From NCBI GenBank assembly GCA_017438635.1, contig JAFRUZ010000011.1, positions 5,766 through 69,765 of the forward strand: DNA of 64,000 nucleotides. Reading direction: 5' to 3'. The DNA comes from Bacilli bacterium. Its GTDB lineage: Bacteria; Bacillota_I; Bacilli_A; RF39; UBA660. The position numbers and the translations under genes were made by a program. The notes under the pieces were generated by a model. The model searched no databases. It was not told the DNA's origin and saw nothing but the letters and a program-made list of their open reading frames with translations. Within the stretch, counting starts at the first letter, position 1. The number at the start of each line of letters is the position of its first letter. Positions 15,450 to 48,828 of the stretch are shown here, piece by piece.

Positions 15450-15478
15450 TTGACTAATAAAAAATATAATGTTACAAT
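15450..15478 (+). promoter_or_regulatory. Promoter for tRNA-Cys
   Basis: TTGACT, a 17-nt spacer, then TACAAT with a TG extension. It ends 9 nt before the tRNA 5' end. Confidence 0.5.
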
Positions 15479-15487
15479 TACTAAGAC

Positions 15488-15562
15488 GGGTCTATAGCCA
15501 AGTGGTAAGGCGTGGGTCTGCAAAACCCTGATTCGTCGGTTCAAATCCGACTAGGCCCTCCA
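15488..15562 (+). tRNA. tRNA-Cys (anticodon GCA), CCA encoded
   Basis: Hand-folded cloverleaf. The acceptor GGGTCTA pairs with TAGGCCC. The anticodon loop is CTGCAAA. The T-arm is GTCGG-TTCAAAT-CCGAC. The discriminator is U73, the CysRS identity element, followed by CCA. Confidence 0.9.
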
Positions 15563-15573
15563 AAAAAGATAAA

Positions 15574-15603
15574 AACTAACTATTTTTAGTTAGTTTTTTT
15601 ATA
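15574..15603. terminator. Bidirectional rho-independent terminator
   Basis: Stem AACTAACTA, loop TTTT, stem TAGTTAGTT followed by a T-run, with an A-run upstream. It overlaps the stop codon of the convergent 264-aa gene. Confidence 0.6.
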
Positions 15604-16370
15604 CGTATTTTTTTAAGTCTAGCTTTTTCAAGAGTATCTTGATTATACTCATCATATGTAAGTGGCAAACCATATAATAACCTAGTATCAAATGAATAAC
15701 CTTCTTCTGCTATTCGCTTCTTTAGTAGTTTTAAATCAAATAATTGATTAGTTTCAAGAAGAAATCTAAATGTAGGACAATCCAAATAGTATCCATTATC
15801 ATGATAGCCTCTTATATAAGAACAATAAAGCATTGTTCTTACATCTAATAAATCTTTAGTTTTATTTTGATTTTTTAATAAGTTTACTACATACTTCCAA
15901 GAATTTATATAAGCAAGTCGTTCTCCAGGATTTATTGAAGGGTTACTTTTAGTAGCAAGAGTCAATATCAATAAATCCATTTCACTTATCTTTTTAGGTT
16001 CTAAGCCACTTGCTATAGCATAACTTCTAAGTGCATAAAACAATACTTTTGATTCGATATCGTTTTTGCCTTCTTCAAGTTTTTTTAAGTTCTTAGCGTG
16101 TTCTATTTCATGTTTTATTGTATTTATACCTAAAACATTTTTAGAAAGAAGAGTGTTTTCATTTATTGTTTTTTTATTTATAACAATACTTTTATTATCA
16201 TTTGAATAAGTTCCAAAAAAATCAGTTTGTTTTTCACAAATATCAAAGTCATGAATATATGGCCACAAATCTTGTTCATTAATCATCATATAATCAAAAG
16301 CCTTTATAATAAATTCGTCATCTATATCTCTGTCTTTATAAGATTGATATAACTCGTACAAATTAGTCAT
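15576..16370 (-). CDS. Hypothetical protein with an HExxH motif (possible metallopeptidase)
   Basis: 264 aa with IKHEIEHAKN. The start at MTNLYEL has a GGAAGGTG SD. No other motif was recognised. Confidence 0.5.
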   Translation of the reverse strand: MTNLYELYQSYKDRDIDDEFIIKAFDYMMINEQDLWPYIHDFDICEKQTDFFGTYSNDNKSIVINKKTINENTLLSKNVLGINTIKHEIEHAKNLKKLEEGKNDIESKVLFYALRSYAIASGLEPKKISEMDLLILTLATKSNPSINPGERLAYINSWKYVVNLLKNQNKTKDLLDVRTMLYCSYIRGYHDNGYYLDCPTFRFLLETNQLFDLKLLKKRIAEEGYSFDTRLLYGLPLTYDEYNQDTLEKARLKKIRIKKLTKNS

Positions 16371-42171: not shown

Positions 42172-42248
42172 TGGCGCGCCCAGAAGGATTTGAACCCTCA
42201 ACCTCTTGGTCCGTAGCCAAACGCTCTATCCAATTGAGCTATGAGCGC
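42172..42248 (-). tRNA. tRNA-Arg (anticodon ACG), CCA encoded
   Basis: The reverse complement is GCGCTCATAGCTCAATTGGATAGAGCGTTTGGCTACGGACCAAGAGGTTGAGGGTTCAAATCCTTCTGGGCGCGCCA. It folds as a cloverleaf with anticodon loop CTACGGA and T-loop TTCAAAT. Confidence 0.9.
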
Positions 42249-47106: not shown

Positions 47107-47646
47107 TTAATAGTTTTCAGCCTTAACTTCAAAATAACTTTGAGGATGTGCACATACTGGGCATACTTTTGGAGCATTTTTACCAATAACAATATGACCA
47201 CAGTTACGACATATCCAGATTTTATCTTCATCTTTAGAGAACACTACTTCATCTTCAATATTCTTAAGTAGTTTTCTAAATCTTTCTTCATGATGTTTTT
47301 CAATTTCTCCAACCATTCTGAACTTTTTAGCGATTAAATCAAATCCTTCTTCTTCTGCAACCTTAGCAAATTCTTCATACATATCAGTCCACTCATAGTT
47401 TTCACCTTCAGCAGCAGCAAGTAAATTATCAGTAGTAGTTGGAACTTCTCCACCATTTAATTCTTTAAACCACATTTTAGCATGTTCTTTTTCATTATTT
47501 GCAGTTTCTTCAAAAATAGCAGCTATTTGTTCATAACCATCTTTTTTAGCCTTACTAGCAAAATAAGTATATTTATTTCTAGCTTGTGATTCTCCCGCAA
47601 AAGCTGCTAATAAGTTAGCTTCTGTTTTACTTCCTTTTAATTCCAT
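47107..47646 (-). CDS. rbr: Rubrerythrin
   Basis: Ferritin-like diiron motifs ([31 protein letters not shown]) plus a C-terminal rubredoxin-type CRNCG...CPVC. Confidence 0.95.
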
Positions 47647-47803: not shown

Positions 47804-47832
47804 TTGCTTAGCTATTTTCTCTGTGTTATAGT
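47804..47832 (+). promoter_or_regulatory. Promoter of the small hydrophobic-peptide gene
   Basis: TTGCTT, a 17-nt spacer, then TATAGT with a TGn extension (TGTTATAGT). Confidence 0.5.
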
Positions 47833-47888
47833 GCATTTTGAGCACTTAATTGTTAGGCGTGCCTATCCTTTTATAAAGGAGGTGCCAC

Positions 47889-47975
47889 ATGAGTAAGAAG
47901 GATTTTATAATTCTCTCTTTACTGATTGTAGTTTTTTATCTATTATCAATTCTCTATGGGGTTTTGGTTCAATAA
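47889..47975 (+). CDS. 28-aa hydrophobic peptide, candidate type I toxin
   Basis: My own read gives ATG...TAA encoding MSKKDFIILSLLIVVFYLLSILYGVLVQ. A strong SD (AAAGGAGGTG) lies 5 nt upstream and can be occluded by a TCCTTT/AAAGGA hairpin. The ORF is too short for the supplied track. Confidence 0.55.
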   Translation: MSKKDFIILSLLIVVFYLLSILYGVLVQ

Positions 47976-47977
47976 AT

Positions 47978-48072
47978 AAAAAAGCCTAACTAGTAGTTAG
48001 GCCTACCCTACAAAGGTAACGCTTAACCTCGAAAATTAAGTGTTCCTTTTTTTTAGAGATTTCTCTCTTAAT
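47978..48072 (-). ncRNA. Candidate cis-antisense RNA (antitoxin-like), about 95 nt, complementary to the 3' UTR of the peptide mRNA
   Basis: It has its own promoter at 48076-48103, a GAAA-tetraloop hairpin AGAGA-GAAA-TCTCT, and a terminator formed by stem GCCTAAC, loop TACTA, stem GTTAGGC plus TTTTTT (47978-48002). The ends are approximate. Confidence 0.45.
48019..48054 (+). terminator. Rho-independent terminator of the peptide mRNA
   Basis: Stem ACGCTTAA, a 9-nt loop, stem TTAAGTGT (one G-U pair), followed by TCC and 8 T residues. Confidence 0.5.
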
Positions 48073-48075
48073 TTC

Positions 48076-48103
48076 ATTATACTAAAAAAAATAGTAATTT
48101 CAA
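48076..48103 (-). promoter_or_regulatory. Promoter of the antisense RNA
   Basis: The minus strand reads TTGAAA, a 16-nt spacer, then TATAAT. It begins 2 nt after the rluB stop codon. Confidence 0.5.
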
Positions 48104-48105
48104 TA

Positions 48106-48828
48106 CTATTTTTCTTTTTTTGATAAACTATACAATTTCTTTACTTCTTTTATAGTAAGAGTTCTATATTCTTTTGAAGATAAACCGTCAAGTGTCAAAA
48201 AAGCATACTTTTCTCTTTTTAATTTTAATACTTTGTGCCCTACTTTTTCAAACATCTTTTTAACTTGATGATTTCTACCTTCAGTAATAGTTATGATAAC
48301 TATACTAGTATCTGTTTTTTTATCATAACTTTTAATTTTCAACTTTGCTCTTTTAGTTTTCTTACCATCAATAACTACTCCATTTTTTAAAGTCATAAGT
48401 TCATTTGGAAGTAATTTACCACTTATTTTAGCAACATATGTTTTTTCTATATCACTACTTGGATGAGTAAGAATATTAGCAAGTTCACCATCGTTAGTTA
48501 AAAGTATTAACCCAGTAGTATCATAATCAAGTCTACCTACAGGAAATATCCTAATATCAGTATCAATTAAAGAAGTAATAATCTTTCTATTTTTATCATC
48601 ATCAGTAGTACATACTACTCCTCTAGGTTTATTAAGTAAAATATATACTTTAGTATTATCTTCAATTAAAATATCATCCACCATCACTTGATCTTTATTC
48701 TCCACTTTAAAACCAAGTTCGGTAACAACAGAACCATTTACTTTTACTTTTCCTTTTTTTATTAATTCCTCTGCTTTTCTTCTAGAACAATATCCAGAAT
48801 TGGCAATTCTTTTTTGTAATCTTTCCAT
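48106..48828 (-). CDS. rluB: 23S rRNA pseudouridine synthase RluB-type (S4 domain plus RsuA/RluB catalytic domain)
   Basis: MERLQKRIANSGYCSRRKAEELI (S4), VGRLDYDTTGLILLTNDG (catalytic Asp) and EGRNHQVKKMF. Confidence 0.9.
   Translation of the reverse strand: MERLQKRIANSGYCSRRKAEELIKKGKVKVNGSVVTELGFKVENKDQVMVDDILIEDNTKVYILLNKPRGVVCTTDDDKNRKIITSLIDTDIRIFPVGRLDYDTTGLILLTNDGELANILTHPSSDIEKTYVAKISGKLLPNELMTLKNGVVIDGKKTKRAKLKIKSYDKKTDTSIVIITITEGRNHQVKKMFEKVGHKVLKLKREKYAFLTLDGLSSKEYRTLTIKEVKKLYSLSKKEK

Follow-up and report, generated by a model that had tools for sequence, protein, structure and literature searches.

What is encoded in the 459-nt gap between the genes for rubrerythrin (47107-47646, minus strand) and RluB (rluB, 48106-48828, minus strand) in the genome of a Bacilli bacterium (contig JAFRUZ010000011.1)? 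The stretch of DNA that was analysed, hereafter called the window, comprises 64,000 nucleotides with a G+C content of 27%, and all coordinates given below refer to it. A sequence-only reading had proposed that the gap carries a type I toxin-antitoxin-like module, and all of the motifs on its list were recovered at their positions by sequence reading, scans and a repeat search. Comparison with homologues indicates that these motifs did not arise by chance. On the evidence described below, we consider it likely that the gap holds a member of a new family of chromosomal type I toxin-antitoxin modules with 3′-overlapping antisense control. The predictions of this interpretation that can be tested on sequence all agree with it, including the presence of a small hydrophobic open reading frame (ORF) and of an antisense gene.

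The family was delineated by scanning metagenome contigs for a core shared by the first copies of the module, GGTAACNCTNAAC-N(4-16)-TAAGTGTTC. This pattern scan yielded 71 loci, of which eight are chance matches in high-G+C sequence and the remainder carry the module. With the addition of a covariance model built on the antisense region (R1), about 60 related modules were found in all, and 42 distinct full-length modules could be aligned from the sense −35 element to the antisense −35 element (alignment A3). The parts common to these 42 homologues are a sense promoter (−35 and −10 positions conserved at about columns 20-48 of the alignment), a pairing between the 5′ and 3′ ends of the sense transcript, a hairpin at the Shine-Dalgarno (SD) sequence, the ORF, two hairpins in the 3′ untranslated region (UTR), and a convergent antisense promoter. 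Their positions in the window are listed in Table 1.

At most of the loci from the pattern scan, the ORF begins with M-[S/N/T]-K-K-D-[F/L]-L-[I/V] and continues with a hydrophobic stretch, and a GGAGG SD ends ~45 nt upstream of the search motif. The window copy follows this plan, with a GGAGG sequence 6-7 nt upstream of the ORF, a charged N-terminus (M-S-K-K-D), and a single predicted transmembrane helix that is rich in Leu and Ile and is not followed by a charged tail. The homologues bear the signature of a coding sequence. None of the 42 contains an in-frame stop codon, compared to 42 and 29 that do so in the other two frames, and pairwise differences per site at codon positions 1, 2 and 3 amount to 0.34, 0.17 and 0.38, the second position being about twice as conserved as the others. 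The 35 distinct peptides among them share invariant K3, K4, L18 and L22 residues, and the start codon, always at the same position, is ATG or GTG in 41 cases and ATA in the remaining one. The 28-codon length first given for the ORF holds for the window, where the canonical TAA stop codon reads CAA and is followed by an in-frame TAA (47970-47975), so that the frame runs one codon further. It does not hold for the family, in which exactly 27 codons are present in 40 of the 42 homologues. Likewise, a strain with 92% identity to the window (L090) carries TAA at the canonical position and thus a 27-aa ORF.

The predicted mRNA for this peptide appears to be closed upon itself. Folding of the RNAs had been recommended as a check, and for a 219-nt sense RNA the predicted energy is −63 kcal/mol (z = −5.4 versus shuffled sequences), with a 5′-3′ helix of ~25 bp. 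The advantage over the shuffles comes from pairing of the terminator region with the first ~25 nt. Pairing between the two ends, first seen as a 12-nt complementarity (GAGCACTTAATT / AATTAAGTGTTC) and returned by the repeat search as inverted repeat I18, proved to be a trait of the family. The two-part helix has 92.8% of its alignment cells paired, compared to 30-44% when the partner is slid, and both the helix and a paired SD are present in all 42 minimum-energy folds. Compensatory changes occur at A3 columns 77/307 and 80/304, and the only two 3′-arm positions not fixed by the search pattern change together with the 5′ UTR, six sequences having A-U in place of G-C and four having C-G in place of U-A. 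Divergent copies carry multiple compensatory substitutions, as in L017 (GGATATATTTAAT / ATTAGATATATCC), L148b (TGCC / GGCA) and L138b (TTTAG / CTGAA). A second, local structure involves the SD, whose probability of being paired is 0.77-1.0 in 42 of 42 homologues despite differing anti-SD sequences, in agreement with the SD hairpin proposed for the window.

Among the non-Watson-Crick cells of the 5′-3′ helix there are 96 G·U and 8 A·C combinations, and therefore the constraint acts on the sense RNA rather than on inverted repeats in the DNA. This imbalance bears on a different explanation of the locus as a miniature mobile repeat of the kind known as miniature inverted-repeat transposable elements (MITEs), whose terminal inverted repeats would mimic an RNA helix and whose ORF and promoters would be incidental. 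An element of this type could account for the imperfect inverted repeats of ~25 bp close to the ends, for the many unrelated insertion contexts, for contigs with several copies, and for the presence/absence polymorphism. However, the conservation runs ~45 nt and ~75 nt past the inverted repeats, into both promoters and the 5′ hairpin of the antisense RNA, and the ORF is under coding constraint. In addition, no target-site duplications were noticed by eye, although no systematic search for them was made. Because of the strand-specific G·U pairs and the conservation beyond the inverted repeats, the MITE-like reading is set aside as highly improbable.

On the opposite strand, the module carries what appears to be a gene of its own. 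The antisense promoter that had been described in the window was found by the scan and recurs in the family. Of 55 distinct modules, 36 have their best sigma-70-like minus-strand site at a fixed distance past the stem of the sense terminator (35-36 nt, or 29-30 nt in the subtype represented by the window). The usual form is TTGACA-17-TGnTATTAT or TATAAT, and the −10 element is mostly TG-extended. The predicted transcript of 98 nt adopts a three-hairpin fold (z = −4.4) consisting of a 5′ hairpin (48068-48055), a hairpin complementary to the sense terminator (SL2), and a terminator hairpin. The last of these was matched by the terminator scan at 48004-47982; including this one, the scan detected just two terminator-like sites in the region, compared to a mean of 0.3 in shuffled sequences. 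Its stem shows compensatory changes, with a closing pair that is GC in 23 cases, CG in 11, UA in nine, and AU in six. The 5′ hairpin is located immediately downstream of the promoter in 44 of 50 homologues, and its stems covary (AUGAAG/CUUCAU, AUGAGA/UCUCAU, AUGAGG/CCUCAU and CAAG/CUUG, with AGAGA/UCUCU in the window). Within SL2, a C·A mismatch on the plus strand corresponds to a G·U pair on the minus strand in 35 of 42 homologues, and this hairpin is therefore optimised for the RNA of the minus strand. For these nucleotides in the mRNA, the 5′ end is the better pairing partner. The two RNAs have separate terminators and would overlap by ~85-95 nt. At the level of sequence, the module thereby has an antisense gene that is equipped with a promoter and a terminator and would give an RNA complementary to the 3′ UTR of the peptide mRNA, as had been proposed and as is expected of a type I antitoxin.

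Table 1. Features of the module in the window.
Feature	Position	Strand	Sequence or signal	Remark
Sense promoter	47804..47832	+	−35 TTGCTT (47804-47809), 17-nt spacer, TG-extended −10 TGTTATAGT (47824-47832), reading TGT-TATAGT	From sequence reading
Predicted peptide mRNA, ~215 nt	47840..48054	+		Inferred start G47840, to end of T run; architecture common to 42 homologues
Long-distance 5′-3′ helix, 5′ arm	47840..47863	+	GAGCACTTAATT + GTTAGGCGTGCC	
Anti-SD/SD hairpin	47866..47884	+	TCCTTT (47866-47871)-TAT-AAAGGA (47875-47880)	Overlaps SD AAAGGAGGTG (47875-47884)
Candidate toxin ORF	47889..47975	+	MSKKDFIILSLLIVVFYLLSILYGVLVQ	28 aa including one-codon read-through; 27 aa canonical
Antisense terminator	47972..48004	−	Hairpin GCCTAAC/GTTAGGC + T run	Over peptide stop codon; first 3′-UTR hairpin on plus strand
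3′-UTR copy of 5′-UTR segment	47996..48016	+	GTTAGGCC... versus GTTAGGCG... at 47852-47879	Direct repeat D2 (GTTAGGC)
Long-distance helix, 3′ arm (sense terminator hairpin + T8 run)	48015..48054	+	GGTAACGCTTAAC ... AATTAAGTGTTCC	Stem AACGCTTAA (48018-48026) with TTAAGTGTT (48036-48044), then T8 at 48047-48054
Predicted antisense RNA, ~98 nt	47972..48069	−		Fully complementary to mRNA 3′ UTR
Antisense promoter	48076..48103	−	TTGAAA-16-TATAAT	11/12 consensus in scan; begins 3 nt past rluB stop codon

A gene of this kind on the minus strand might also be the primary function of the locus, with a small RNA, either derived from a 3′ UTR or independent, that acts in trans and doubles as the terminator for the gene upstream (rluB in this case), and with a peptide that is accessory or a decaying passenger. 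Consistent with this possibility, the terminator scan shows no terminator for rluB other than that of the module, as had been noted before, and the antisense gene is usually found directly behind a co-oriented gene or a tRNA gene (41 of 54 neighbours on the side of the antisense promoter share the orientation of the antisense RNA). Moreover, eleven copies, namely L002 and ten other loci, keep the antisense region without the 5′ half of the peptide ORF, the SD or the sense promoter, with the antisense promoter still in its canonical place in at least six. The sequence-only reading had named conservation of the RNA structure without the ORF as evidence against a toxin gene, and these eleven loci display precisely that. 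However, conservation of the ORF is strong in the family as a whole, and therefore the antisense-only relatives are better read as cases of toxin decay. A primary minus-strand RNA would also leave unexplained the clear constraint on the ORF, the SD, and the sense-specific 5′-3′ helix in 42 copies, and against it stands the end-to-end complementarity of the antisense RNA to the sense 3′ UTR. We regard this explanation as quite unlikely.

The antisense RNA of the proposed toxin-antitoxin module might have a second site of action. Because a segment of the 5′ UTR is repeated in the 3′ UTR, the antisense RNA has partial complementarity to the 5′ UTR, and the suggestion that it could reach this region, made from the repeat in the window, gains independent support from the family. 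In 35 of 37 modules, the variable base that follows GTTGGGTG in the 5′ UTR is complementary to the base that precedes CACCTAAC, which is the 5′ arm of the first 3′-UTR hairpin. Each of the four base pairs is represented, and shuffled sequences average 11.9 with a maximum of 22 in 10,000 trials. This position (A3 column 82, corresponding in the window to 47852-47860 with 47984-48003) has no partner in the closing 5′-3′ helix and is linked to the closing pair of the first 3′-UTR hairpin. The alternative helices between the 5′ UTR and the arm of this hairpin are 87.5% paired. Four-state covariation of this type points to either an alternative fold or a second antisense contact, which sequence alone does not separate. 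Duplex formation by the antisense RNA with the 5′ UTR is predicted at a mean of −31 kcal/mol (a crude control gives z of about −3), and these duplexes usually reach the SD. When the antisense-complementary 3′ region is kept unpaired to imitate the bound state, opening of the SD is predicted to become more costly in 32 of 42 copies; the mean cost goes from 5.7 to 6.9 kcal/mol, and that of the window copy from 6.0 to 8.3 kcal/mol. A second, shorter contact of the antisense RNA with the 5′ UTR is likely.

The distribution of the copies is also informative. The R1 model finds one copy in the window (95.5 bits), and no second copy was found there by tblastn or blastn. In 617 kb of rluB neighbourhoods from relatives, R1 returns L002 and the divergent member L017 (MTKRELSQFIIIILLFILVFIILFK). 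Extra copies were found by R1 on L147, L148, L138 and L150, which together with L108 and L158 give six two-copy contigs, with a tandem arrangement in four. A minus-strand ORF at L138:157-306 belongs to a divergent member that has a longer, more polar N-terminus (MKKREYNIKLLRYISLILLLLTLLVLVIKK) and whose closing helix is kept by compensatory changes, and therefore the family is wider than the exact-pattern scan could show. The proteins that flank the modules fall into 73 clusters, mostly with housekeeping functions, and those sampled include LepA, an M16 peptidase, a class-V aminotransferase, a radical SAM enzyme, and a pyrimidine-nucleoside phosphorylase. No module match was found in a plasmid collection (blastn, tblastn) or in a phage collection (blastn). 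A pattern scan of viral contigs gave a single match, which lies inside a coding region and was rejected as chance.

The adjacency of rluB and rubrerythrin is kept in just two of 80 RluB neighbourhoods taken from related species. In one of these (L001), the syntenic gap measures ~80 nt and the module is absent. In the other (L002), the last ORF codons, both 3′-UTR hairpins, and the TTGAAA-16-TATAAT antisense promoter are retained, and the sense promoter, 5′ UTR, SD, and start codon are lost. This comparison with the window used a local blastn alignment, as a global MAFFT alignment was misleading. A patchy occurrence with multiple or duplicated copies in unrelated contexts is as expected for a type I family.

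These data bear on whether the peptide might instead be a non-toxic small membrane protein, such as an accessory subunit or a regulator, whose level is tuned by the antisense RNA. Such a role would fit the lack of a toxin-family match, the very short sequence without a charged tail, and the housekeeping character of the neighbouring genes. However, the 73 flank clusters are unrelated, and consequently no partner gene is conserved. Tandem duplication, presence or absence in close relatives, and frequent loss of the 5′ half of the ORF with the antisense region kept are typical of toxin-antitoxin loci rather than of accessory subunits, and three stacked layers of translational silencing would be unusual for a harmless peptide. 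A benign function of the peptide therefore seems unlikely to us.

To place the candidate toxin among known families, its relatives were compared with existing models. Control searches behaved as they should, with Fst and PepA1 matching NF033608 and PF13955, and TxpA and BsrG matching PF16935 (Hol_Tox) at E values of 1e-7 to 1e-8. The peptides of the new family gave no match to NF033608 or PF13955 at E ≤ 10, and none to PF16935. Ten exact peptide variants were absent from a collection of 15 billion proteins, and a literature text search turned up no paper that prints the peptide N-termini. Rfam searches with the window region and with one main-type copy returned only chance-level matches (for the window, the best was RprA at E = 9.9), and on L106 a match to Ref55 scored 26 bits versus a gathering score of 43 and fell on a terminator-like hairpin. 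Since the peptide is outside the TxpA/BsrG, BsrE, and Hok families, the resemblances described below are ones of architecture and not of homology.

The module resembles the txpA/RatA, bsrG/SR4, and bsrE/SR5 systems of Bacillus subtilis in having a convergent antisense RNA of ~100 nt that is complementary to the 3′ end of the toxin mRNA, and an SD that is partly buried in a hairpin. This organisation corresponds to that recorded in T1TAdb for Gram-positive families, in which the antisense RNA lies on the 3′ side with partial overlap (PMC8594479). Binding of SR4 has been reported to tighten the sequestration of the bsrG SD (PMC3834814), and binding of the antisense RNA is predicted to have the same effect here. 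In contrast to the B. subtilis systems, the ORF of the new module is overlapped by the antisense RNA only around the stop codon, and the 5′ end of the mRNA pairs with the same 3′ segment that the antisense RNA targets. Several B. subtilis loci of the txpA, bsrG, and bsrE type reside on prophage-like elements, whereas the new modules are not in prophages.

Additional parallels exist with the par locus of Enterococcus faecalis plasmid pAD1 (Fst/RNA II, of the Fst/Ldr group), which likewise has convergent promoters, an mRNA of ~210-230 nt, an extreme 5′ end engaged in an intramolecular helix, a 5′ stem-loop that covers the SD, and a repeated DNA segment that creates a second region of sense/antisense complementarity (PMC7472228). 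Furthermore, Fst and the new peptides both have an N-terminal K-D charge pair that precedes a hydrophobic helix. However, the new family lacks the PXXXG motif that is essential for Fst toxins (PMC7472228), as its consensus has no Pro or Gly, and it also lacks the charged C-terminal tail. Moreover, par uses one shared bidirectional terminator in place of the two separate ones found here, and its DRa/DRb repeats are at the translation start, whereas the analogous repeat of the new module is upstream of the SD.

As in hok/sok and aapA1/IsoA1, the full-length mRNA is closed by 5′/3′ pairing and is predicted to be translationally inert. The antisense RNA of the new module is directed at the 3′ arm of the closing helix instead of at the 5′ leader. 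Other differences from hok are that no overlapping leader ORF (mok) is present and that the peptide is unrelated, with no Hok/Gef Pfam match. Activation by hok-like processing of the 3′ end was considered and rejected, as removal of the last 3′ arm is not predicted to open the SD.

Several observations weigh against the type I toxin-antitoxin interpretation. The sense −35 element of the window is weak, with three of six consensus bases, and for this reason the promoter was not listed by the promoter scan. The sense terminator hairpin is also weak, having two G-C pairs and, in most homologues, a C·A mismatch. The peptides are devoid of the charged C-terminal tail that is typical of many Gram-positive type I toxins, and they match no toxin family, as searches of seven family peptides against Pfam, NCBIfam, and PADLOC gave nothing. 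The covariation counts are uncorrected for the shared ancestry of the sequences, and the search pattern itself fixed most of the 3′ arm of the helix; support that does not depend on the pattern comes from the two free covarying positions, from the 5′ arm, on which the pattern placed no constraint, and from the copies recovered with the covariance model. Finally, the antisense half of decayed copies could have been kept as the terminator of a co-oriented upstream gene, an arrangement available in the 41/54 cases mentioned above.

Within the toxin-antitoxin interpretation, which we prefer, the conservation of the parts, the coding signature, the covariation, and the copy distribution are observed in the sequences, and transcription of both RNAs, toxicity, the direction of regulation, and the nuclease involved are inferred. 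A sigma-A-type promoter with an extended −10 element would produce a ~215-nt mRNA for a membrane peptide of 27 or 28 residues with a single helix. Predicted folds and covariation suggest that the first ~25 nt of this mRNA pair with the last ~35 nt, thereby closing the molecule and probably protecting both of its ends, and that the local anti-SD hairpin covers the ribosome-binding site. The convergent promoter past the rluB stop codon would generate the ~98-nt antisense RNA, which matches the entire 3′ UTR with perfect complementarity, the 3′ arm of the closing helix included. Binding would probably begin at the loops of complementary hairpins, and the long sense/antisense duplex might then trigger RNase III-type decay by analogy with RatA/txpA and SR4/bsrG. 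At the same time, binding might free the 5′ segment of the mRNA and tighten the sequestration of the SD, as in the predicted change from 6.0 to 8.3 kcal/mol for the window copy.

A more speculative proposal, which we offer only as a tentative possibility, is that the module is a three-partner RNA switch in a widespread type I family of uncultured gut and rumen Mollicutes-like Bacilli, and that orphan antisense genes are anti-addiction modules. In such a switch, the GTTGGGTG-N segment of the 5′ UTR might pair with the 3′ end of the mRNA (the inert state), with the first 3′-UTR hairpin, or with the identical sequence in the terminator arm of the antisense RNA. One antisense RNA would therefore act on two sites, first opening the closing helix at its 3′ end and then clamping the 5′ UTR to lock the SD. 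Antisense genes that have no toxin of their own would counter paralogous toxins.

The family has been invisible to protein-based searches, and its ORFs are below the length limits of gene callers, yet it recurs in many gut and rumen contigs of uncultured Bacilli with reduced genomes. It offers a compact and richly covarying RNA pair for studying the combination of a closing helix, SD sequestration, and a 3′-overlapping antisense RNA. The covariance model provides a means to annotate such loci in metagenome-assembled genomes (MAGs).

The identities of rubrerythrin and RluB are backed by Pfam hits recorded for the same locus in metagenome assemblies. The RluB protein of the window is nearest (59-78% identity) to those of MAGs labelled as uncultured Bacilli, Tenericutes, Mycoplasma sp. 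CAG, or Erysipelotrichaceae, and one relative, Candidatus Faecisoma, is placed in Mycoplasmatota incertae sedis. Eight low-G+C contigs with RluB ~60-64% identical (L014, L017, L020, L048, L052, L058, L061 and L064) are deposited as 'uncultured Muribaculaceae', and these labels are probably wrong.

Metagenome contigs from the same species are identical or near-identical to the window at the locus. One same-species contig (L087) has an identical RluB and the same antisense promoter, but a different peptide allele. L087 (807-1013) and L094 both derive from sample ERZ28018698, and their assembly is interrupted within the peptide ORF. A main-type ORF end (…LISSLVLIILLLIALLFVILK) is present on one contig of this pair together with the antisense region and rluB, and the other contains rubrerythrin and a window-type 5′ UTR. 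This break suggests that two alleles, or one chimeric allele, co-exist in the sample. In L092 (848-1607), rluB is called as two ORFs of 77 and 183 aa, reflecting a frameshift or an assembly error.

The modules tend to adjoin genes for stable RNAs or to directly follow protein genes. A tRNA gene is present within a few hundred nucleotides, not always on the antisense-promoter side, in L099, L110, L113, L114, L120, L125, L137, L144, L145 and L148. In the window, the second-best independent R1 match (15463-15644) was rejected as a module, being a tRNA-Cys gene with its terminator; this gene, at 15488-15562, is followed by a CTAAC/GTTAG terminator hairpin that gives a weak false match to the antisense model. 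A gene for tRNA Arg-ACG is located at 42172-42248.

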